Source: a virus (taxonomy: Duplodnaviria; Heunggongvirae; Uroviricota; Caudoviricetes). From it: a stretch of DNA of 64,000 nucleotides. Below the pieces are notes generated by a model, which had not been told where the DNA came from, did no database searches, and saw only the letters and a list, made by a program, of their open reading frames with translations. How positions within the stretch are numbered: position 1 is the first letter of the stretch; each line of letters opens with the position of its first letter. The stretch lies in the IMG/VR virus record IMGVR_UViG_3300025316_001100; one strand, written 5' to 3'. Positions 8,364-58,347 of this stretch are shown one piece after another. Position numbers and translations under genes: made by a program.

Positions 8364-8383
8364 TGTTATACACCCGGACTCAG
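8364..8383 (-). promoter_or_regulatory. conserved 20-bp element, copy 3 (minus: CTGAGTCCGGGTGTATAACA)
   Basis: Its TGA is the stop of upstream ORF 8380..8613; SD AAGGAG follows. Confidence 0.6.
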
Positions 8384-15232: not shown

Positions 15233-15250
15233 CTTATACACCTGCACTCA
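15233..15250 (-). promoter_or_regulatory. conserved 20-bp element, variant copy 5 (minus: CTGAGTGCAGGTGTATAAGAG)
   Basis: Variant with GTGCAGG instead of GTCCGGG; lies in a 430-bp gene-free region. Confidence 0.45.
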
Positions 15251-15261
15251 GGGTATTAAAT

Positions 15262-15377
15262 TGCAGATAGTGGAATCGAACCACTTTTCTCCCCCATATG
15301 GCGGGGGCGAGTTAGAGTATCCTAATTCTAGCTCCCAAAGAGACTTTAAGGATGCCCACCACATTTCTCTAATCTGC
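15262..15377 (-). ncRNA. tRNA-like structured element (TpsiC arm AGTGG-TTCGATT-CCACT and a CCCCC-GCCATAT-GGGGG hairpin carrying CAT), closed by a GCAGAT/ATCTGC acceptor-like stem. No canonical 72-90 nt cloverleaf could be completed by hand
   Basis: The minus strand reads ...GCAGATTAGAGAAATGTGGTGGGC...CGCCCCCGCCATATGGGGGAGAAAAGTGGTTCGATTCCACTATCTGCA. It is flanked by two copies of the 20-bp element. Confidence 0.3.
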
Positions 15378-15383
15378 TACATG

Positions 15384-15404
15384 GTGTTATACACCGGGAC
15401 TCAC
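15384..15404 (-). promoter_or_regulatory. conserved 20-bp element, copy 6 (minus: GTGAGTCCCGGTGTATAACAC)
   Basis: Its TGA is the stop of ORF 15401..15784. Confidence 0.55.
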
Positions 15405-20669: not shown

Positions 20670-21893
20670 TTAACTGCTTGTCAATGCGACAAGACTTACA
20701 TTAGAACTCAATTGGCTATCCCCTGCATTCCGCAGGTTCATCATTCTTAAACCTTCGTTTAAGATATTCTTACTCGCATTGTAATCTCTATCGTGAGGCG
20801 TAAAACAATTAAAACAAGTCCAATGGCGTTCTTCCCCTAAATCACGATATCTCCATCCACATTCACTACACAATTGGGAAGATGGAAACCATCGGTCTAT
20901 TTTAATTATTTGTCTTCCATACCACTTTGCTTTATACATCAACTTTTGAACAAATGACGAGAAACAACAATCATTTAATTGGCGATGAAGTAATTTTTCT
21001 CTCCATCGCTTCTCTTTCCTTTTTTCTGGGTCTTTGTTTTTCAGCATTGATTTTACACTTAAATCTTCAATAACTATGACTTGGTTCTCATCAATTATTT
21101 TTTTAGATGTTTTGTGTAAGAAATCTTCACGAACATTACTTTGCTTTACTTTCAACTTATTTAACGCTAATTTACTTTTGTTTCTACGATTGCTTCCTTT
21201 AACTTTTCTGCTAACGGAACGAGCAAGGAAGCGTTCTCTTGACTTATATTTTGTAGTAGCAGGACGAGGATTAGCGAACCTTTCATCCTCACTACTTACA
21301 ATATATTGAACATTAAGGTCTAAACCTACAACTTTAATTACTTTGGGTAATTCTTCTATTTCTTTGACACAAGTAATAGAAACAAAGTATTGATTGGCTT
21401 TGTTTTTGCTAATTGTGGCAAACTCAATTTCACCTTCTAATGGTCGGTGAAGGATGATTGGGATGCCTTCAAGGAACTTCGGTATGACTAATTTATCATC
21501 AATCACTTTAACATTTTGTGGCACACGGAATGACTGCTTGCCGTGTCTTTTCTTAAATCGTGGGAAACCACACTTACCTTTGAATTTGCCTTGTTTCTTT
21601 AACTTACATTTTTCAAAGAAATTATCAAAGCCATTCTGTAATTGGCGTGCTGCGTATTGAAGTGATTGACTACCGACTTCCTTCAACCATTCGTATATTT
21701 GTTTCAATTCAGGAATACTTGTGGCGTTGTCATAATAATTTAATGACTTATGTTCTTCACCTTTATGAGCATCAATGCGAGAACGGAGAAACTGATTATA
21801 CAAAAACCTTACGCAACCAAAGTGTTTGGCTAAAAGTATTTGTTGTTGCTCCGTTGGATACAACCTATATTTATAGGTAAATTGATGCTTCAT
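20670..21893 (-). CDS. tnpB: TnpB/OrfB transposase-associated RNA-guided nuclease family protein (407 aa)
   Basis: N-terminal YKYRLYPTEQQQILLAKHFGCVRFLYNQFL (the OrfB helix-turn-helix signature); C-terminal CSECG...WTCFNCF...DRDYNASKNI (Zn-finger plus the RuvC-III motif). Confidence 0.8.
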   Translation of the reverse strand: MKHQFTYKYRLYPTEQQQILLAKHFGCVRFLYNQFLRSRIDAHKGEEHKSLNYYDNATSIPELKQIYEWLKEVGSQSLQYAARQLQNGFDNFFEKCKLKKQGKFKGKCGFPRFKKRHGKQSFRVPQNVKVIDDKLVIPKFLEGIPIILHRPLEGEIEFATISKNKANQYFVSITCVKEIEELPKVIKVVGLDLNVQYIVSSEDERFANPRPATTKYKSRERFLARSVSRKVKGSNRRNKSKLALNKLKVKQSNVREDFLHKTSKKIIDENQVIVIEDLSVKSMLKNKDPEKRKEKRWREKLLHRQLNDCCFSSFVQKLMYKAKWYGRQIIKIDRWFPSSQLCSECGWRYRDLGEERHWTCFNCFTPHDRDYNASKNILNEGLRMMNLRNAGDSQLSSNVSLVALTSS

Positions 21894-23410: not shown

Positions 23411-23430
23411 CTCTTATACACCTGGACTCA
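23411..23430 (-). promoter_or_regulatory. conserved 20-bp element, copy 8 (minus: GTGAGTCCAGGTGTATAAGA)
   Basis: Followed by GGAAGATGAAAGGACCAATAATATG; its TAA is the stop of 23414..23647. Confidence 0.55.
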
Positions 23431-41526: not shown

Positions 41527-41705
41527 TCCACTCGTTCTTCAGTCGGCTCCCCCACACCCCACTCTTTGTCCCCAGCGTAATCTTGTCCGCATAAGGTAGA
41601 AGAGCAAGTCAGTCCATCAAAATGGACCTCGCAATGACCATCAGTAAAGGGTATTTTAATCTTGGTCGCCATATTGGATAATAGCAGCCTGACCGGCAAA
41701 GCCGG

Positions 41706-42926
41706 TCAGGCTGCCTTCACTTCAAAATCATCGGGATCATAATTACCGAAATCCAGGGCTGGAATGTCGATCTTCACCGCATCTTCGCCCAGATTCGGAA
41801 TACCCCGCTTGTTCAACTCATCAATACCCGCCATCGTCAGCGAGTAGCCCTGACTGGTCACTGCAACCAATGCAGGTTCATTCTCCGTAGCTGTCAGCAA
41901 TGGTGGCATCAGGTAATGAATCAATTCTTCCTCTTTGCAACCTGCATAAAGGATCAATCGACTACGTGGGATTGCTCCCTGTTGGCCCAATGCCGCCAAT
42001 ACCGTAATTCGCTGTCGGGTCATGCCATACGGATCAATGTCATTGTCACGGGCCACAGCCGCCGCAACCTGTTCCCAGGATACTGCGCCCTTATGGCTCT
42101 GAAGTTCGTACTCGGCCCGCATGTCAACAGCAAACGCCAGGGCTTCACGTGGAACCCGCCAGCAATACTTTGCTACCAACTTGCAAACGCTCATATCCCA
42201 ATCGGGATTTGCACGACGCACGATCTCTGCAATTTCATCCCGGCCATACAGATTCAAATAAATCTTTCGGAACCGGGTATCAAAAGCATCAAACAATAGA
42301 CCACGATCCGTGGTCGCAATAATCCAGCAAACCCTACGGCAATCGGCAGTCCAACCATCGCCCAAAGACAGCATACCGTCTTTCGGTTCGGTTGCCTTCA
42401 ACAATGCCTGCACAACCGGATTCGGCAAAGCATGTACTTCGTCAATCAATGCCACGGTTGGCGGAATGACAAAGACCCTATTCTCATCTGGGTTTAATCG
42501 CAAGGTGATGGGATCACCACCACTTTGTTCATAAGCCACACGATCAAGAACATCGGCAAATGCTTCAACAATATCCAGAGCATTTTGAACTGCCTTCGGC
42601 TGAATCTCAACATAAGGCAACAAAGTCGTCTGGCCGAACAATCGTGCCAGAGTCGTCTTACCCGCCGATGAACCACCGATCAAAGAAAACTGCTGATCGC
42701 CACCAGCATGGTTTTCACGGCCCCACATTTGGTACGCCGCCCGGCTCAATCGCCGCTTCGCCTTGTCGTTGCCCACAAACTTGGACAACGGGCAATCGGG
42801 ATTCTGATGGCTAGTCTTCCACTGACGCTGCTCGACCGACAAGCCAGTATTGAACAACAACTGGTTCTGTGGGCCGGGCTCTCGCACCAGCAAAGGACTC
42901 AAGATTGTTTTGTTACCTTTACGCAT
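41706..42926 (-). CDS. RuvB-like AAA+ ATPase (406 aa)
   Basis: Walker A GGSSAGKTTLARLF; Walker B VALIDEVHAL; sensor and arginine region IIATTDRGLL..FDTRFRK; C-terminal winged-helix segment resembling the RuvB domain III pattern. Confidence 0.55.
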   Translation of the reverse strand: MRKGNKTILSPLLVREPGPQNQLLFNTGLSVEQRQWKTSHQNPDCPLSKFVGNDKAKRRLSRAAYQMWGRENHAGGDQQFSLIGGSSAGKTTLARLFGQTTLLPYVEIQPKAVQNALDIVEAFADVLDRVAYEQSGGDPITLRLNPDENRVFVIPPTVALIDEVHALPNPVVQALLKATEPKDGMLSLGDGWTADCRRVCWIIATTDRGLLFDAFDTRFRKIYLNLYGRDEIAEIVRRANPDWDMSVCKLVAKYCWRVPREALAFAVDMRAEYELQSHKGAVSWEQVAAAVARDNDIDPYGMTRQRITVLAALGQQGAIPRSRLILYAGCKEEELIHYLMPPLLTATENEPALVAVTSQGYSLTMAGIDELNKRGIPNLGEDAVKIDIPALDFGNYDPDDFEVKAA

Positions 42927-42977
42927 TTTTCACACCTTATAGTAAAAGCCCACCCGGCACACGCCGGGTGGGCTCTC

Positions 42978-42999
42978 TGTGTTATACACCCGGACTCAG
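42978..42999 (-). promoter_or_regulatory. conserved 20-bp element, copy 12 (minus: CTGAGTCCGGGTGTATAACACA)
   Basis: Lies 4 nt downstream of a GTAGTATAAT -10 box at 43004-43013 and upstream of the RuvB-like gene. Confidence 0.55.
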
Positions 43000-43008
43000 G
43001 GTATTATA

Positions 43009-44043
43009 CTACGCAGAAGCCCTTTTGGGACGTTGTGCTTCGTAAGTTTTCTGAATCTTGGCAATCGCACTGTTGAACGCCAACCGGGTGAATCGCCGGG
43101 AATACGGCTTACCAGTATTGGGATTGATGTTGGCAGCCGCCACTGCTGTTTGCCAACCTTTTTCCCAATGCTCACCAAGCAATTCCTTGTTCGGCTGTTG
43201 GAAAGCCATCAGTACAGCATTTTCAAACGGGGTAAGAACCGTTTCTCGAATCGCACGACGTTGATCGTGATCTAGCAATTCAGGCACCGGCCGCAACTCA
43301 TCGGAAAACAACGTCTCAAATACGGCTGAATCTCCATCCACTGCACTTCCTTCATGCTTGGATGACATGCTTGTGGCATGATACGTTTCGGTCAACGTAG
43401 CTTGCACAATCGCACATTCATTTTCGTTGAATCCCAAGTATGCCGTCACTTCATCAAAGGTGGCAGGCCGATTAAAATCAGCACGGCCCTCTTCGTAAAG
43501 CATATGCAATTTACGAGCCTCATTTGACCAGGGGGACAACGGATTGGCCTTATTGACCGCACCCGCCAACTTCCTACGAACGCAATGGTACAAATAGGTC
43601 ATAAAAGCAATGTTGGTATCGGTGTAATAGTACATCGCATTGATGGCACCGATGATGCCTTCATCGTAATAATCTTGAAACGACAAGATCATTTCGGGAT
43701 GAGCCGACGCATACCGATAAGCCAATTTTTCAATGCAACGGGTATAACCACATAGAATCTCCATACGAATATCGGTTACCGCCTGAATCTTTTCCAGGGA
43801 CTTGGCATCCAACTTAATACCACGAATAGAACTCACTACGCCCTTCTTCATGGCATCAACCAGTTCGTCACGAAAGTCCGCTCGGCTGTAAGACTTACGC
43901 TTGATGTCAGCAATTTCTACAACCTGATCGTACATCTGCTTTAGGGCCTTATTACCCCGACGCATAACCTTCGCCAACTGATCCTTCCGTTCCTTAGACA
44001 AGGGCATATACGGAAGGGTTTCGTGATCGGCTACAATTCGCAT
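43009..44043 (-). CDS. sigma-70 family RNA polymerase sigma factor-like protein (344 aa)
   Basis: Region 2-like FQDYYDEGIIGAINAMYYYTDTNIAFMTYLYHCVRRKLAGAV (compare DLIQEG.IGL.KAV.KFD...FSTYA.WWIRQ); region 4-like LDHDQRRAIRETVLTPFENAVLMAF ... FTRLAFNSAIAKIQK. Confidence 0.55.
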   Translation of the reverse strand: MRIVADHETLPYMPLSKERKDQLAKVMRRGNKALKQMYDQVVEIADIKRKSYSRADFRDELVDAMKKGVVSSIRGIKLDAKSLEKIQAVTDIRMEILCGYTRCIEKLAYRYASAHPEMILSFQDYYDEGIIGAINAMYYYTDTNIAFMTYLYHCVRRKLAGAVNKANPLSPWSNEARKLHMLYEEGRADFNRPATFDEVTAYLGFNENECAIVQATLTETYHATSMSSKHEGSAVDGDSAVFETLFSDELRPVPELLDHDQRRAIRETVLTPFENAVLMAFQQPNKELLGEHWEKGWQTAVAAANINPNTGKPYSRRFTRLAFNSAIAKIQKTYEAQRPKRASA

Positions 44044-44097
44044 GATTCAAAATCTTTCTGATAAAATGGGTAACTTGTTATTTGCGTTTCCGCCTCA

Positions 44098-44117
44098 TGT
44101 TATACACCTGGACTCAC
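44098..44117 (-). promoter_or_regulatory. conserved 20-bp element, copy 13 (minus: GTGAGTCCAGGTGTATAACA)
   Basis: Upstream of the sigma-like gene; its TAA is the stop of 44100..44402. Confidence 0.55.
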
Positions 44118-44402
44118 TTGATTTTTCACCTCTTTCGCCCGAAATCGGGCCAAACCCTCAGCAAAAGCCGCTTCGGGAGTGGCACACCAGCCGCAAATGC
44201 CGGTGTTATACCAAGAACCGTTCTCAGTACCGGGCATGATACTCTTTGGCCCCTTGCTGTCAAGACCATTCCACCACGTCGGACCATTGCTCCAATCCAG
44301 AACACAGTAAAAATAGGGGGTTCTGATAGTGGAGTCGTTCCAATCCACGTTTTCGGGATCATCATCAGGGACTAAGTGAACTTCAATTTTAGGATTTTGC
44401 AT
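44100..44402 (-). CDS. hypothetical protein (100 aa)
   Basis: ORF ending ..QVSPGV*. Confidence 0.45.
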   Translation of the reverse strand: MQNPKIEVHLVPDDDPENVDWNDSTIRTPYFYCVLDWSNGPTWWNGLDSKGPKSIMPGTENGSWYNTGICGWCATPEAAFAEGLARFRAKEVKNQVSPGV

Positions 44403-44430: not shown

Positions 44431-44450
44431 TCTTATACACCTGGACTCAC
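44431..44450 (-). promoter_or_regulatory. conserved 20-bp element, copy 14 (minus: GTGAGTCCAGGTGTATAAGA)
   Basis: Followed by TGGAGCAGACTCATAATGAAAGTAAAAAATG. Confidence 0.55.
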
Positions 44451-44456
44451 TTGATT

Positions 44457-44492
44457 TCTCTGTTGCCACAAGAATTCTTGTGGCAACAGAGA
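44457..44492. repeat. Perfect 36-bp palindrome TCTCTGTTGCCACAAG-AATT-CTTGTGGCAACAGAGA (contains GAATTC)
   Basis: 16-bp perfect stem with a 4-nt loop, between the terminator hairpin and the 20-bp element. Confidence 0.6.
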
Positions 44493-44523
44493 AATCAGCC
44501 CCCACGGCCGGGTGGCCGTGGGG
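44486..44523 (-). terminator. Rho-independent terminator (minus: CCCCCACGGCC-ACCC-GGCCGTGGGGG then CTGATTTCTCTG)
   Basis: Perfect GC stem directly after the 44540 gene end. Confidence 0.5.
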
Positions 44524-44539
44524 GCTATCATCCAGCGGT

Positions 44540-52463: not shown

Positions 52464-54068
52464 TTACTTCCCAGACTGCACATTTATCACAGGGGTAATC
52501 CCCTTGAGATCCGTCCAAAGAGTACCAGGGCCAGAATAAATCATCTTCAAATCAATGTCATCTGGCAATCCTGTAGCAAATTGCCACTGCGTATAAGCCG
52601 ATGGATCACCAAAAGCCTTAACGGCCAATTCAAACAACTGTGCCTTGGCTTCCTGCTGCAACCGTTTGGAAGCGTTCTCGGCCTCACCGATAGCGACCAC
52701 CTTTTGAGCTTCGATATCGGCCACCTTCCTATCAACAGCAGCAATCATCTTCTCCGTTTCAGCGGCCGTAGTATCAGCAGTCTTTTGGCCTTCGGCATTG
52801 ACATTGGCAACCAATTTCTTGGTGCCTTCCGTAATTTTTGCCGCTTCCAATTTAACAGTCTGTTCGGCAGCACGCAACTTCATTTCAGTCTTGGCTGTAG
52901 TCGCTTCCTGGGTACGTGTCAAAGCCAATTCGTCGGCAATGTAGCCCTTTTGAATAGGTTCTCGCACGTCCTTCGGAATGTAAATGTGACGCACTAAACC
53001 GTACAATAAACTAATGTTCTTTTCTTTCAACACTTTATTGAAAGATTTATCAACATCCTCTTGGAATTTTTGTCGGCTATCACCCACAAGCAATTCCACG
53101 GCTCCCAATCTCGATCCATTGTTACGACAAATAGATTCGCATTGAGGAATAATCACTTTGCTTTCCACAGCGGCCAAATTACCAAAACGACTGATAATGT
53201 CTGGGCACTGATCAGGCAGCACTCCCCACACAGCACTGAAGTCCATTTGAATCTTGAATCCATCGCTCGAAGGGAATGTAATGCCTGTATTCACTACTGG
53301 CATACATTCTCCGCTGGCGTCAACTAGAACTTGATTCTGCTGGTTGACTTGCTTCTCGGTCGAAATCTCTTTGGCATTATAACCAATAGAAACAATATCG
53401 ATTTGCATCTCACGGGGATTGATCGGATAAAGGCCAGGAGGCAATGTATCCTTTTGAATTCCCGCTTTACGACCAAGAGCAGTGTTGTCTGTCAAATACG
53501 TGACCACGCCAACATAACCAGGGTTTATATGCACCCAACCAGCGTGCTTCATTTGTGGTATTTGTTGAGAGCCAACATTCGTCTCTTCAGTTCTAACGAC
53601 CTTTACTTCGTAACCATACGGATTGATACGATACCGTCCAGGTCCGAATGTACGTCGCAAAATACCCTTTTGTGTAGTGGCCCCAAGATCACCATCAACC
53701 AAAAATTGACCACTAGGCAAATCGTTGCCCAATTTACTGGTAACAATGGCCAATTCACCGGGCTTCACCACAACGTCGTCAACCACTGTTCGTTCCCACC
53801 AAACGGGACAATAAAAATGACGACCAGGGCCGGGCATGTCACACTTTACACCAATCTCACCCTCTTTGGCAAAATTGCCAGCAGCAGCATACTTGTTGCC
53901 CAACGTAAAAAACAACGGTCCCTTATACCGCAACATAAGACTTTGACCGGGTTCAACGTAAACTCGATTAACAGTCCAGTCGAAGAAAAAGTAAGAGCAG
54001 AACAGGGCAATTACGCCCAGGCCCACACTAGCAAGCAAACAACCCTTGGTTTCATCTCTCAAACTCAT
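52464..54068 (-). CDS. SPFH/band-7 (flotillin/HflKC-like) membrane protein, paralog B (534 aa)
   Basis: N-terminal TM helix; internal PG-YPINP repeats; C-terminal Ala/Glu/Gln-rich coiled-coil (AETEKMIAAVDRKVADIEAQKVVAIGEAENASKRLQQEAKAQ). Paralogous to 54084..55628. Confidence 0.5.
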   Translation of the reverse strand: MSLRDETKGCLLASVGLGVIALFCSYFFFDWTVNRVYVEPGQSLMLRYKGPLFFTLGNKYAAAGNFAKEGEIGVKCDMPGPGRHFYCPVWWERTVVDDVVVKPGELAIVTSKLGNDLPSGQFLVDGDLGATTQKGILRRTFGPGRYRINPYGYEVKVVRTEETNVGSQQIPQMKHAGWVHINPGYVGVVTYLTDNTALGRKAGIQKDTLPPGLYPINPREMQIDIVSIGYNAKEISTEKQVNQQNQVLVDASGECMPVVNTGITFPSSDGFKIQMDFSAVWGVLPDQCPDIISRFGNLAAVESKVIIPQCESICRNNGSRLGAVELLVGDSRQKFQEDVDKSFNKVLKEKNISLLYGLVRHIYIPKDVREPIQKGYIADELALTRTQEATTAKTEMKLRAAEQTVKLEAAKITEGTKKLVANVNAEGQKTADTTAAETEKMIAAVDRKVADIEAQKVVAIGEAENASKRLQQEAKAQLFELAVKAFGDPSAYTQWQFATGLPDDIDLKMIYSGPGTLWTDLKGITPVINVQSGK

Positions 54069-54083
54069 GATTAGGTTCCTTTC

Positions 54084-55628
54084 TTAATTCTTAGAGGGTG
54101 TAATAGGAGTGTTCGCCGCTGGAGTCGTAGTCCATTGACGTTTGGAATCAAACGTCCTGAATACATCCATGAGCGGACTATCCTGTGTATTGACCATCAT
54201 GCCCTTAAAGGCTGGGGCCAACTTCTTGTAAAGCGTCCAACGAGCAAATTCATTACCGTTATTTCCAAACGCCGCAATAGATCGCTTCCAACCAGCAGCC
54301 TCGGCTTCATTAGCAAACATAACAACGTCTGCCTTGGCTTTGCCAGTGGCCATAATGGCTGCCGCTTGATCTTTAGCTGCAAGCAATTGTTGCTCGGCAA
54401 CAGCCAATCGTTTTTGGGCTTCAATTACAGCCACTTCCTGCCGTTGCAAAGCTTGTGTAGTTACAGCAACCACAGCTTGGTCAGCAGCAACTTTAGCTTG
54501 CTTCTGCAACACCGTCGCCTTTTGTACGGCCAAATCCTGCTCCGAAGCTTGCTGCGCAATCTCTTTTGTAAATTGCGATTCTTGCTGTAAAGCGATTTGT
54601 CGTCTACGAACCGGATCAGCAATTTGTTCCGGTGGCCGAATGGTTGTAATCAATGCCTGGATCACTTCGATGCCTTGTGCGCCGCAAGTAACCTTCATTG
54701 CCGTTTGAAAATCTTCTTGGAACGTCACACGGGTATCCCCAGTAATAAATTCTTTACCAGAATGGTTTGATCCCTTGAGACGAGTATAAGCACGTGCATT
54801 GGGTAGAATAACTTTGGCAATTACCTCTTCATCCAATGCCTTACCACTACGCTCTTCATTGAAAAGAATGTAGGTAGTCGGTGCAGTCTCGGGCTTCACC
54901 CTAAATTCAATAATACCCTCAAGACTGACCCAAAAACCATCTCTAGTCGGGAAGCCAATATCTTGCAAATTGTATCGTTGACTTCGACAATCAATCAAAC
55001 GAGTTTCTTGCACATACGGATTCAAATAATATGTGCCCGGCTCCAAACAATCAGCTTGTACTCCACGACAATCCTTGGGCGACAAAATTTGATTGGCTTT
55101 TTCAGGCATCGTTGCGGCCAAATTGGTAAGCAACCCCTTATACCCAGCAGGAATACTTACGGGATCATGCAATTCAATCATTTCTGCATAATCATTTCTG
55201 ACAGGCGTAGTGCCTTGAATAAAACCATTGATTGGATATCGTCCAGGTCGCAATACTTCAGGAACAATACCCTTTTGCGTTTCTTTCCATGCAATCAATT
55301 CACCGGCTGCAAGGTCTTCGCCATAAATACGAATGCGAACACCCAACTTGCCTTCGGGAATTTCAACCTGCGGCACCACTTCAGAATCCCAAACATAAGG
55401 ATTGTAGTAATACCGACCTTCAGTAAGTACATCCTTCTGAACACCCTTATAATCTTGAGTGGGGGCAATAATCATGCCCGGCTCCAGATCATTGCCAGTC
55501 TTTTTCATCAGAATGGCCATGTGCTTGGCAGGCACGTCAATCCGCATCTCGGAATACATCCACCAAGGCGTAATCACAACAAACGCTACAAGAATCGCAA
55601 TCCAAATCCAAATCTTTGAGGAGTCCAT
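54084..55628 (-). CDS. SPFH/band-7 (flotillin/HflKC-like) membrane protein, paralog A (514 aa)
   Basis: N-terminal TM helix; SPFH-like core (FPTRDGFWVSLEGIIEFRV...); flotillin-like AQ/AEA coiled-coil (KQAKVAADQAVVAVTTQALQRQEVAVIEAQKRLAVAEQQLLAAKDQAAAI...ANEAEAAGW). Confidence 0.5.
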   Translation of the reverse strand: MDSSKIWIWIAILVAFVVITPWWMYSEMRIDVPAKHMAILMKKTGNDLEPGMIIAPTQDYKGVQKDVLTEGRYYYNPYVWDSEVVPQVEIPEGKLGVRIRIYGEDLAAGELIAWKETQKGIVPEVLRPGRYPINGFIQGTTPVRNDYAEMIELHDPVSIPAGYKGLLTNLAATMPEKANQILSPKDCRGVQADCLEPGTYYLNPYVQETRLIDCRSQRYNLQDIGFPTRDGFWVSLEGIIEFRVKPETAPTTYILFNEERSGKALDEEVIAKVILPNARAYTRLKGSNHSGKEFITGDTRVTFQEDFQTAMKVTCGAQGIEVIQALITTIRPPEQIADPVRRRQIALQQESQFTKEIAQQASEQDLAVQKATVLQKQAKVAADQAVVAVTTQALQRQEVAVIEAQKRLAVAEQQLLAAKDQAAAIMATGKAKADVVMFANEAEAAGWKRSIAAFGNNGNEFARWTLYKKLAPAFKGMMVNTQDSPLMDVFRTFDSKRQWTTTPAANTPITPSKN

Positions 55629-56255: not shown

Positions 56256-57200
56256 TCACTTGAAAAACTCGGCCTGATCGACAAACTGCATGCTAGCCCG
56301 GAGTGCGCCCGTCTTGTCTGTCGTGGAATCCCCCACGAAAATGCACTCGCTAGGTTGTAATTTCCAATTCCTGATGTGGTGAATGAAAAGTCCAGACTGC
56401 GGCTTACGACAATAGCAAGTCATTGGTGGAATCCGATGAGGACAAAACAGAGTGTCGATTTCCACGCCCAACAATTTACAAGTATGGGCAAACATCGCTT
56501 CTGCTTCGGCATGGGTAAATTCATTTTTGGCAATAGCCGATTGATTCGACGCACCAAGCAAGTGATAACCTTTCTTCTTCCATGCTTTGAGAACAGCCGT
56601 TCGATTAGGAAGAATTTCAATCTCGTCCTTGGCAACCGGATATACCTTTGCTCCCTTTGATTTACGAAGCGTGTCATCAAAGTCAAGAATAATTGCCTTA
56701 TTGACAAAATCCTTAGGATATGGACGACGCTCGAAATGATGTTTCTCAATTCGTGCGAATCCTTCTGTCGTCGTCGGTTTTTGAAATTCTTTACGATACT
56801 TGAAAAGCACAGCCACAGGAAACATATTGGGATCGTCTTTTACGGCTTTCAAATCATCCTGCGTGAAGAAGATTTCGCCATAACGATCCCACATGCGATT
56901 CAACGCATTGATCTGTGCGTCTTCAATGCTGGTGTCCATTAATTTACAAACAACAACGGCCTTCCTCTTCGTGGCTTGCTCAATAAATGGCTTACGGCTT
57001 TCAACGGTGGGAAATGTATTGTCAAGGACTACATTCTTGCCATCAGATAAAGCAGCCACCATCTGCGGCACAAGATCGATAACCTTACCGCCTGTAATGT
57101 CTCGACTAAGATGTATATGACCTTGTTTCTTGTAATCCTCGGTAACTGTCGATTTGCCAGAGGCCGGGCATCCACAAATAAGAACAACTTCTTGGGTCAT
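56256..57200 (-). CDS. Polynucleotide 5'-kinase / 3'-phosphatase (T4 PseT/Pnkp-like, 314 aa)
   Basis: N-terminal P-loop LICGCPASGKST (kinase); C-terminal HAD phosphatase motifs ILDFDDTL (DxDxT) and FVGDSTTD. Confidence 0.8.
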   Translation of the reverse strand: MTQEVVLICGCPASGKSTVTEDYKKQGHIHLSRDITGGKVIDLVPQMVAALSDGKNVVLDNTFPTVESRKPFIEQATKRKAVVVCKLMDTSIEDAQINALNRMWDRYGEIFFTQDDLKAVKDDPNMFPVAVLFKYRKEFQKPTTTEGFARIEKHHFERRPYPKDFVNKAIILDFDDTLRKSKGAKVYPVAKDEIEILPNRTAVLKAWKKKGYHLLGASNQSAIAKNEFTHAEAEAMFAHTCKLLGVEIDTLFCPHRIPPMTCYCRKPQSGLFIHHIRNWKLQPSECIFVGDSTTDKTGALRASMQFVDQAEFFK

Positions 57201-57213
57201 AATGATCTTTCTT

Positions 57214-58347
57214 TTAACCAGGAATGTAAGCAGTCTGCATGGTCAATATATTGCCAGGACTGTCTTTGGCGTTAAGTAAATAAGACGTAGGATCAAGCAA
57301 ATAATCCCATTTGGGAGCATCTAATTTCCAAGAATGAGAAGCCGATGTTCTTTCCCGTTCGTACAACTCCACATGGAGCATCGCACGGGAATGGCCGGGA
57401 ACGTCGGGACGTTCCCGGCCTTCTTTCACAACTGGTGTTACCGTGCCAATAAAATCACCAGCCCGCACAATATCGCCGGGTTTCCATTTTTCATAAACTT
57501 GGATTTCGCCATAACACACAATTCCACTGGGGCCTTCGACTAAAACGCAATCCGTATCGTTCCACCAAGGCGAATTATCCTGCGGTCCTGTAAACATTTC
57601 CTTGCCAACCACTCGGCCATCTTCCACCGCTTGTACAAAAGTGCCTTGGGCACAATAAAGATCCACACCAGTATGATGGGAGTGTTTACGTGCAAATCCA
57701 AAAGCCCCTGGATGATAACCACAAGGAATGCCTGGGCAGTTGGTCAATGGAAATCTCCATCGCAAACAATCTTTTGTTTGCTGTACGATGTCACTAATGT
57801 TGGCCATCGCACCATTACCTTCATCGTTGCAAGCCAGCATCTTAGTTTGTGGATCGACTCGTTTCCAACCCATGCCAAACAAAGTACGCATATTTTTTTG
57901 CGTAATCTCGTTTTGAAGCATCATGGTATTCATAGCCGGTGCATAAATGATCGGCCGTGTATAATCCCATGCTGCAACCGTGCTAGTTAAAATATTATCC
58001 GCCAATCCATTGGAAACCATACCCAACGTATTGTATGTGATTGGTGCAATGACCAATACCCCTGCCCATTTTCTTAGACCGATGTGAACTACCGGATCAC
58101 CCTTCTTCTGCCAAACCTTCGTGCCATGCGGCGTAGTCCATTCATTAAAATCAGTGAATACTTGAATATCTTTGTGCCCAGCAATATATGCCTGTGCATT
58201 TTCGTCGTGAAAGATGTCATTTTCAAAAAAATAACGACCCTTGTCGGTAGTGACAACTCTTACGTTGCCAAGCTCCCGAAGGGTAACCGCTAATTTTTTA
58301 GTAAGTGTCGCTGCAACACTACCGGTAACACCAAGTAAAATATTCAT
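57214..58347 (-). CDS. HFCD-family flavoprotein (phosphopantothenoylcysteine decarboxylase CoaC-like) fused to a C-terminal degenerate M23/LytM peptidase-like domain (377 aa)
   Basis: N-terminus MNILLGVTGSVAA..., VLVIAPITYNTLGMVSNGLADNILTS..PAMNTMM...ACNDEGNGAM (CoaC/Dfp N-domain pattern). C-terminus HHTGVDLY..GTFVQAVEDGRVV...GDFIG..AMLHVELYE...DPTSYLL (M23 fold, HxH degenerated to MLH). Confidence 0.65.
   Translation of the reverse strand: MNILLGVTGSVAATLTKKLAVTLRELGNVRVVTTDKGRYFFENDIFHDENAQAYIAGHKDIQVFTDFNEWTTPHGTKVWQKKGDPVVHIGLRKWAGVLVIAPITYNTLGMVSNGLADNILTSTVAAWDYTRPIIYAPAMNTMMLQNEITQKNMRTLFGMGWKRVDPQTKMLACNDEGNGAMANISDIVQQTKDCLRWRFPLTNCPGIPCGYHPGAFGFARKHSHHTGVDLYCAQGTFVQAVEDGRVVGKEMFTGPQDNSPWWNDTDCVLVEGPSGIVCYGEIQVYEKWKPGDIVRAGDFIGTVTPVVKEGRERPDVPGHSRAMLHVELYERERTSASHSWKLDAPKWDYLLDPTSYLLNAKDSPGNILTMQTAYIPG

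Follow-up and report, generated by a model that had tools for sequence, protein, structure and literature searches.

A gene pair for a divergent sigma-70-family factor and a RuvB-like AAA+ ATPase in a probable huge-phage sequence, and the repeated element that accompanies it

The gene pair and the repeated element

This analysis concerns a pair of adjacent genes in a 64,000-nucleotide (64-kb) stretch of Caudoviricetes DNA (IMG/VR record IMGVR_UViG_3300025316_001100), the whole of which is called the window hereafter. Both genes are located on the minus strand, and each is preceded by a copy of a short element that recurs in the window. The upstream gene (43009 to 44043) codes for a divergent sigma-70-family factor of 344 amino acids (aa), as judged from its open reading frame (ORF), profiles and alignments. 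The downstream gene (41706 to 42926) codes for a 406-aa RuvB-like AAA+ ATPase consisting of a large ATPase domain, a lid and a winged helix, as judged from its ORF, a structural model and profiles. An earlier note on this DNA, made from the letters alone, had described proteins of these two lengths within 41706-44117, and both ORFs are present just as it said. On the evidence of sequence comparisons, a sigma gene followed by an AAA+ gene is an old, conserved and usually operonic pair of uncultured huge phages.

When searched with GAGTCCAGGTGTATAA at up to three mismatches, the window yields 15 copies of the element, all on the minus (coding) strand, against an expectation of 0.32, and this number was reached in none of 100 shuffles. 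Likewise, a weight matrix made from the element sites located no plus-strand copy in the window. The conserved block reads T[GC]AGTCCRGGTGTATAA[CG]A, and its nine invariant bases are GGTGTATAA. It contains a TATAA core resembling a −10 region together with a contiguous upstream extension (GAGTCCRG in the window), and no conserved −35 region was seen upstream of the copies. The canonical −10 hexamer of host sigma-70 promoters is TATAAT, and because the element carries TATAA[CG] without the final T, it resembles a promoter peculiar to the phage more than a standard promoter of the host. Fourteen of the 15 copies are intergenic despite a coding density of 87%, and 12 end 11 to 56 nucleotides (nt) before a start codon. 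Eight copies also provide the upstream ORF with its stop codon, through either the terminal TAA of the element (five copies) or a TGA at the start of the element (three copies). Examples of copies are found at 44100-44115, 23414-23429 and 8366-8381 of the window.

Three copies cluster at the locus examined here, where they precede a 100-aa ORF (44448), the sigma gene (44115) and the ATPase gene (42997). The copy upstream of sigma (TGAGTCCAGGTGTATAACA, 44098 to 44116, minus strand) contributes its TAA as the stop codon of the 100-aa ORF and, taken as 44115-44100, ends 56 nt ahead of the sigma ATG. The copy upstream of the ATPase gene (TGAGTCCGGGTGTATAACA, 42980 to 42998, minus strand) begins 11 nt past the sigma stop codon and, taken as 42997-42982, ends 55 nt ahead of the AAA+ ATG.

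Sequence and structural characteristics of the two proteins

Profile comparisons identify the 344-aa protein as a full-length but divergent sigma-70-family factor. Taken alone, the window protein falls below every Pfam threshold, although it matches region 2 of the SigH structure 3mzy (E = 1.9e-6) and PHROG 351, annotated ‘sigma factor’ (E = 3.3e-6). The family profile (A3), which is based on an alignment of 105 members, matches primary, RpoS, SigB, FliA and SigF sigmas in the PDB, with the best matches to primary sigmas (E = 1.9e-17). These alignments run unbroken from region 2.1 through region 4.1, and some begin at profile positions 14-23, the counterparts of sigma1.2 plus the non-conserved region of Thermus and E. 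coli sigma A. The Pfam family Sigma70_r2 (PF04542) is matched by 71 of the 105 members (best E = 5e-13). The alignments to PDB sigmas also cross region 3, and PF04539 is matched by just one member. An exhaustive profile search indicates that the family comprises 645 clusters at 50% identity for E ≤ 1e-3, and 177 for E ≤ 1e-30, nearly all of them 300-360 aa in length and matched from end to end. The region 2 and region 4 signatures to which the earlier note had pointed are thus borne out by profile searches, including the alignment of region 4.1 (‘LTxFERAVL’) with ‘LSPRERDVL’ of SigA.

Two residues of region 2.2, D124 (nearly invariant throughout the family) and E128 (conserved in closer relatives), have the spacing of the D and E in the core-binding motif ‘DLIQEG’. 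In region 2.3, F147 is nearly invariant, T149 is conserved at least among closer relatives, and Y150 is found in the closest set; these positions correspond to the ‘FSTYA’ motif. The arrangement of the window protein reads, from its N-terminus, as a sigma1.2-like segment, region 2, a probable region 3, region 4.1, and a helix-turn-helix of region 4.2 into which an INPNTGKPYSR turn is inserted, followed by a C-terminus that ends in ...RASA.

The C-terminal part follows the family pattern GWQxxVA-(x)3-INPxTGKPYSR-xAxxxALxRxxxKI. Because one orthologue (L026) has a canonical 4.2 sequence, ‘GVTRQRAHQI’, where the others have the INPxTGKPYSR turn, this part is, from the alignment, a divergent region 4.2 helix-turn-helix with an enlarged turn. 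The helix-turn-helix receives no Pfam score, and the AlphaFold model forms helices there (pLDDT, the predicted local distance difference test, of 82-88). When the entire sigma model was compared by Foldseek, the best matches were all sigma chains of holoenzyme structures, with low template-modelling (TM) scores. A similar helix-turn-helix motif (...IAKRYINPxTGKPYTR...) is shared by a family of proteins of ~177 aa encoded on IMG/VR phage contigs of 33-43 kb (loci L040-L152, for example L044:1365-1901). A degenerate DNA pattern for INPxTGKxYSR mostly retrieved this unrelated family.

The extreme C-terminus of sigma (window 43009-43020) is also conserved. Ninety of the 105 family members end in alanine, 53 of them in AA and 25 in VA, compared with eight of the 126 ORFs in the window. 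Such a tail is present in only ~20% of the ATPase family, of which the window member ends in KAA. C-terminal degrons read by ClpXP are known from ssrA-tagged and CtrA-type substrates, and by analogy the conserved [AV]-A end of the sigma family suggests a ClpXP-type degron and a short-lived factor. Alternatively, the tail may be a docking site for a partner.

For the 406-aa protein, profiles and a predicted structure together identify a RuvB-like AAA+ protein with conserved catalytic motifs that is not a RuvB orthologue. The Walker A, Walker B, arginine-finger and winged-helix features that the earlier note had read from the sequence recur throughout the family. Its Walker A motif is GGSSAGKT and its Walker B motif is LIDEVH, and among 92 homologues the residues G84, G89, K90 and T91 (Walker A) and D162 and E163 (Walker B) are invariant or nearly so. 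The same is true of T205/T206 (sensor-1), R218 at the arginine-finger position, and the sensor-2 PRE at 259-261 (R260). The AlphaFold2 model is confident (pLDDT 94, predicted TM score 0.91), and its first 44 Foldseek matches in the PDB are all RuvB, over ~340 columns that span all three domains; the match to 1in6 covers 339 columns with E = 1.3e-17 and a TM score of 0.79 on the target. Structure prediction, which the earlier note had proposed as a check on both proteins, consequently speaks clearly for the RuvB fold of the ATPase, whereas the sigma model is weak even though every best match is a sigma chain.

The family profile of the ATPase (A2) matches RuvB in the PDB (E = 1.2e-18) over a span that begins at Walker B and takes in the third domain specific to RuvB. 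The next-best matches are ClpX and HslU (~2e-6), and these are limited to the N-terminal ATPase part. However, scores against the RuvB equivalogs are far too low for orthology (45.9 bits against a cut-off of 282 for NF000868, and 31.5 against 299 for TIGR00635), and PF05496 (RuvB_N) is matched with 16 bits against a threshold of 27. The protein carries an N-terminal extension of ~45 aa and a beta-hairpin insert of ~25 aa (residues 128-155) before Walker B, and in the family profile the sequence ...TSKGY... is aligned opposite the arginine-rich wing (RTPRGR) of Thermotoga RuvB. No full-length structural relative was found in BFVD.

Three other assignments were considered for the ATPase. The earlier note had suggested that it might resemble a sigma-54 activator or a clamp loader, and neither idea is supported. 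The sequence lacks a GAFTGA motif, no sigma-54-activator family is among its Pfam matches at E up to 1, and its partner is of the sigma-70 type. Chains of the E. coli clamp loader give TM scores of ~0.4 (0.38-0.43) with the model, where RuvB reaches 0.79, and the winged helix that forms the C-terminal domain is of the RuvB type; matches to PHROG families labelled ‘clamp loader’ are confined to the AAA+ core (residues 47-265). ClpX-type unfoldases carry a GYVG pore-loop motif, and we judged an unfoldase unlikely because no such loop is apparent by eye, no alignment having been computed for this feature.

Conservation of the pair and of its signals

An IMG/VR search with the ATPase alignment, supplemented by loci found through individual proteins, provided 39 AAA+ loci. 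The earlier note had treated the pairing as a curiosity of this one sequence; it proves to be a widely conserved module of huge phages, with sigma encoded directly upstream and on the same strand in 19 of the 39 loci, over a range of ATPase identity from 65% down to 30%. The intergenic gap is usually less than 110 nt, or the genes overlap, and a few loci have one inserted gene. In a neighbour-joining tree of the ATPases, the copies without sigma form a clade of 14 loci, two copies from Planctomycetes metagenome-assembled genomes (MAGs), one of which adjoins an integrase, and a very distant outgroup pair. All other branches, the deepest included, are linked to sigma. The parsimonious reading of the tree is that sigma and the ATPase are an ancestral pair that became separated about twice. 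When loci were sampled from the sigma side, the ATPase gene was found downstream in seven (P0127, P0200, P0245, P0237, P0002, P0004 and P0005), and two further contigs were too short to tell.

Clustering all neighbouring ORFs against one another showed that nothing else is broadly conserved near the pair, with one exception. This is an ArdC-N/MPTase gene, lacking in the window, that ~11 sigma-linked loci carry at a distance of one or two genes downstream from the ATPase. Proteins of this ArdC-N/MPTase-PolyVal type combine a single-stranded-DNA-binding domain with a metallopeptidase and are of the anti-restriction type (for example, L001:12545-13369 and L174:7668-8330). The genes upstream of the ATPase in sigma-less loci are heterogeneous (an RNA ligase, a GNAT protein, a DUF protein or nothing recognisable), and no cryptic sigma is present in those loci. 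Neither RuvA, RuvC nor any other recombination gene is conserved near the ATPase in the 39 loci, within flanks of 6-10 kb. RNA ligase genes also recur a few kilobases from the pair (L022:4943-5950, L174:4080-4793, L009, L033 and L035/36).

The element too is conserved in related lineages. It is located upstream of the sigma gene in L179 (sigma 89% identical), L176 (67%) and L002 (54%). The observation in the earlier note that each gene is preceded by the element thus holds for the window, but not for L176 and L002, where the ATPase gene follows sigma by 24 nt and ~120 nt, respectively, and has no copy of its own. For this reason, the separate copy before the ATPase gene in the window and in L179 is a recent addition to an ancestral operon. 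In the more distant locus L005, sigma region 2.3-3.0 is almost unchanged (YLYHCVRRRM...NPLSPWSN), and a targeted search of the 13-kb locus found the core GTGTATAA three times on the coding strand (1051, 2261 and 8637) and never on the other. Each of these cores has GAAC 15-16 nt upstream, which results in a bipartite, promoter-like motif. The motif is absent from relatives whose sigma differs in region 2.4/3.0, and a search for direct repeats in the distant loci L001, L005 and L039 revealed no shared promoter motif.

Alternative sigmas that autoregulate are classically recognised by a conserved motif in front of their own gene. The presence of the element before the sigma gene in three related lineages, its TATAA core of the −10 type, the retention in L005 of both region 2.3-3.0 and the GTGTATAA core, and the lack of a polymerase gene in the window (its largest ORF has 534 aa) each lend indirect support to sigma as the reader of the element. 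From these correlations, we consider it rather probable, with due reserve, that sigma regulates its own gene and drives promoters of the form T[GC]AGTCCRGGTGTATAA[CG]A.

Further signals surround the two genes, all on the minus strand. The 82-nt spacer between them contains the element copy and, after it, a strong GC hairpin and a short run of U residues (UUUU) at 42947 to 42974 (−32.9 kcal/mol, z = −6.1), between the element and the AAA+ start codon. This hairpin could be a terminator of sigma transcripts, a 5′ stem-loop on the AAA+ mRNA, or both. A 14-bp hairpin overlapping the AAA+ stop codon (41684 to 41714) is a probable terminator. Directly upstream of sigma is the 100-aa ORF (44100 to 44402), to which no function is assigned, with the third clustered copy of the element (44431 to 44449) 30 nt before it; L176 has an equivalent 103-aa ORF, again with its own element copy. 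A host-type promoter candidate, TTGACA-16-TATCAT, is found ~190 nt upstream of the sigma ATG (44236 to 44263) and matches the consensus at 11 of 12 positions. As a consensus match only, it might allow a first, sigma-independent expression of sigma. Three nucleotides upstream of the 16-mer core of the element at 44448 there is a perfect 46-nt palindrome (44452-44497), unique in the window, which directly follows a terminator-like hairpin (44497-44526) and could be an operator or a second terminator.

As for the genomic setting, the window holds small genes, nearly all on the minus strand. A nucleotide search of the region against GenBank phages gave no match, and looking for exact matches to the window in IMG/VR and in the JGI metagenomes yielded none. 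At the protein level, the only GenBank phage record matching either protein is LR756511.1, a 595-kb genome assembly of an uncultured phage that carries both genes in the same order as the window. Relatives of the ATPase are overwhelmingly located on IMG/VR contigs of 100-570 kb, and a contig as long as 373 kb is reported to carry the identical AAA+ protein. Because of these contig sizes and the match to LR756511.1, the window most likely represents a non-structural part of a huge-phage genome; no virion gene was found among its ORFs. It also encodes TnpB, HNH, SPFH, polynucleotide kinase (PNK) and ADP-ribosylglycohydrolase proteins. PADLOC matched neither sigma nor the ATPase, and scans of the window with Rfam and ARAGORN gave no matches.

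Several other features of the window deserve brief mention. Two adjoining paralogous genes of ~520 aa each (52464-55628, minus strand) code for SPFH/Band-7 domains, and a gene at 57214-58347 (minus strand) fuses a flavoprotein domain to an M23 peptidase. The polynucleotide kinase/phosphatase gene is at 56256-57200, and a TnpB/IS605 OrfB gene is at 20670-21893 (minus strand); TnpB genes are found near sigma in L167 and L176 as well. A non-coding stretch of ~135 nt (15250-15380, minus strand), flanked by element copies at 15402 and 15249, includes a perfect tRNA T-arm (GTGGTTCGATTCCAC) along with a hairpin like that of an anticodon arm and a closing stem like that of an acceptor. It is matched by neither ARAGORN nor Rfam, and its fold z-score is just −1.5; it may be a tRNA-like RNA that has degenerated or carries an insert.

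Proposed roles and comparison with known systems

The explanation of the whole that we prefer, while holding it tentatively and short of calling it likely, is that of a conserved sigma-ATPase module in which sigma drives the element promoters and the ATPase serves as an accessory of sigma. In such a scheme, sigma would bind the host core RNA polymerase and direct the host enzyme to the class of promoters defined by the element, among them its own, which would result in positive autoregulation. Expression of sigma could be started by read-through or from the host-type candidate at 44263-44236. The ATPase would be a DNA-encircling, ATP-driven accessory of sigma-directed transcription that tracks along or remodels DNA or the polymerase complex, which resembles the T4 clamp and clamp loader or the sigma-54 activators in logic, not in ancestry. 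Through its [AV]-A end, sigma would be turned over rapidly by a ClpXP-type protease and hence act transiently.

Not all parts of this scheme merit the same trust. The participation of the ATPase in the same process as sigma is conceivable and somewhat more doubtful than the role of the element; it is drawn from linkage only, since the pair has remained adjacent and usually operonic while its surroundings were shuffled. The more demanding proposal that sigma activity depends on a dedicated RuvB-like hexameric ATPase loaded on phage DNA we regard as unlikely. The motor would then help to open TATAA promoters that lack a −35 region, or would be a mobile activator tethered to sigma.

A number of observations weigh against the preferred explanation. 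We know of no sigma-70-family factor that has been shown to need an AAA+ partner, and homology to RuvB points by default to branch migration of DNA. No sigma is encoded within 6 kb of the ATPase gene in the 14-locus AAA+ clade or for the two copies from bacterial MAGs, and at least two sigma loci, P0272 and L178, have no nearby AAA+ gene, so adjacency is not obligatory. In the window, the terminator-like hairpin and the separate element copy uncouple the sigma and ATPase genes. An RNA polymerase of the phage, or a modified form of the host holoenzyme, could be encoded beyond the window and read the element, and a sigma gene behind its own promoter needs a starter. Finally, the AlphaFold model of sigma has a pLDDT of 62 and was built from an alignment of six sequences.

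Some of these points recur when other explanations are considered. The two proteins might have independent functions, with sigma redirecting the host RNA polymerase, the ATPase acting in recombination-dependent replication, branch migration or as some other DNA motor, and the genes remaining neighbours solely through their shared temporal class. This is a possibility that we take seriously, albeit as a doubtful one. It would accommodate the facts that the closest solved structures of the ATPase are all Holliday-junction motors, that an entire AAA+ clade lacks an adjacent sigma, and that in the window lineage the ATPase gene has its own element copy and hairpins on both sides; the ArdC-N/MPTase gene that follows the ATPase in ~11 loci likewise suggests a DNA-handling context. 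It does not readily explain why the family has kept its adjacency to sigma across its deepest splits whereas every other neighbour varies, or why no recombination gene has been conserved nearby. The distance from the RuvB equivalog cut-offs and the alignment of ...TSKGY... with the RTPRGR wing also speak against it. A third arrangement, in which the ATPase regulates sigma as a remodeller, a loader or an anti-sigma-like protein that controls core binding or turnover, possibly via the alanine tail, seems improbable. Sigma genes are commonly followed by those of their own regulators, the C-terminal [AV]A is conserved in the sigma family, and ClpX and HslU come next after RuvB among the PDB matches. 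Those matches, however, are restricted to the N-terminal ATPase part, and the full three-domain match is RuvB; the segment where a GYVG pore loop would be sought looks RuvB-like by eye, and a degron for the host ClpXP is a simpler account of the tail.

The element itself raises a separate question, because it might not be the promoter of this sigma. It could belong to another polymerase or factor with its gene elsewhere in the genome, or be a signal at the RNA level or at gene boundaries, in which case sigma would serve a different class of promoters that the window does not show. We consider this rather unlikely, although contiguous conservation over 18-20 nt without a −35 region resembles the promoters of single-subunit phage polymerases, and one copy is immediately followed by a terminator-like hairpin. 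The stop codons that the element supplies in eight of 15 copies would suit a boundary signal, and the start-up problem posed by a sigma gene behind the same element would disappear. On the other hand, the 64-kb window has no polymerase gene, conservation of the element follows conservation of sigma in L179, L176, L002 and L005, autoregulated alternative sigmas are common, and the L005 core has GAAC at the distance of a −35 region.

Knowledge of huge phages comes almost exclusively from metagenomes, and little of it concerns their control of the host transcription machinery. The present analysis contributes a large unnamed sigma family (hundreds of clusters at 50% identity), a candidate cognate promoter and a conserved ATPase partner. 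If the ATPase is a transcription cofactor, the belief that sigma-54 alone depends on an AAA+ engine would have to be revised; should it act in recombination, it would represent a phage motor of the RuvB type with no RuvA or RuvC gene next to its own. Were sigma to depend on the ATPase, ATP-coupled initiation of bacterial transcription would have evolved independently in a third form, in addition to the T4 clamp system and to sigma-54 with its activators, and this form would be widespread among uncultured huge phages.

Sigmas described as ‘RpoD-like’ have been noted in group 2 jumbo phages (PMC7824862), and sigma-70 genes have been noted in huge phages (PMC7162821). While sigma genes of phages, huge phages included, are therefore already known in general, the sigma family and its conserved ATPase partner are new here, and a full-text literature search found no description of a phage sigma paired with a RuvB-like ATPase. 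The ‘RuvB helicase-like’ protein gp202 of phage PaBG is a 221-kDa virion protein that is listed as structural, and it is far larger than the 406-aa ATPase.

The 344-aa protein shares regions 2 and 4 with other phage sigmas, and like them it would retarget the host core polymerase to a phage-specific promoter motif. Among the sigma-70-family factors that phages encode are SPO1 gp28 and phiEco32 gp36. Unlike these, the present protein belongs to a separate, large and previously unnamed family with 645 clusters and one GenBank phage match, and it is set apart by its sigma1.2-like N-terminus, the INPxTGKPYSR insertion in region 4.2, the C-terminal AA/VA and the RuvB-like ATPase gene downstream.

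Bacterial RuvB, the branch-migration motor of Holliday junctions (TIGR00635, NF000868), has in common with the ATPase its three domains, the Walker A and B, sensor-1, arginine-finger and sensor-2 motifs, the pre-sensor-1 hairpin and the third domain. The ATPase differs in having only ~20% identity to RuvB, the N-terminal segment of ~45 aa and the 25-aa insert before Walker B. It also lacks the conserved basic wing motif and a nearby RuvA or RuvC gene, and it is found almost only on huge-phage contigs.

In T4 late transcription, the gp55 sigma and gp33 act with the gp45 sliding clamp, which is loaded by the gp44/62 AAA+ loader. The similarity consists of a phage sigma, an ATP-dependent machine that tracks along DNA, and promoters of the TATAA −10 type without a −35 region, with the coupling being inferred in the present case. 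The sigma described here is full length, unlike the minimal gp55; its partner is RuvB-like, with a TM score of 0.4 to clamp loaders; and no clamp or gp33 gene was seen. With the system of sigma-54 and its AAA+ activators, the pair shares the genetic association of a sigma with a hexameric AAA+ ATPase. It departs from that system in that its sigma is of the sigma-70 type and its ATPase, devoid of GAFTGA and of any activator-family match, has the fold of RuvB.

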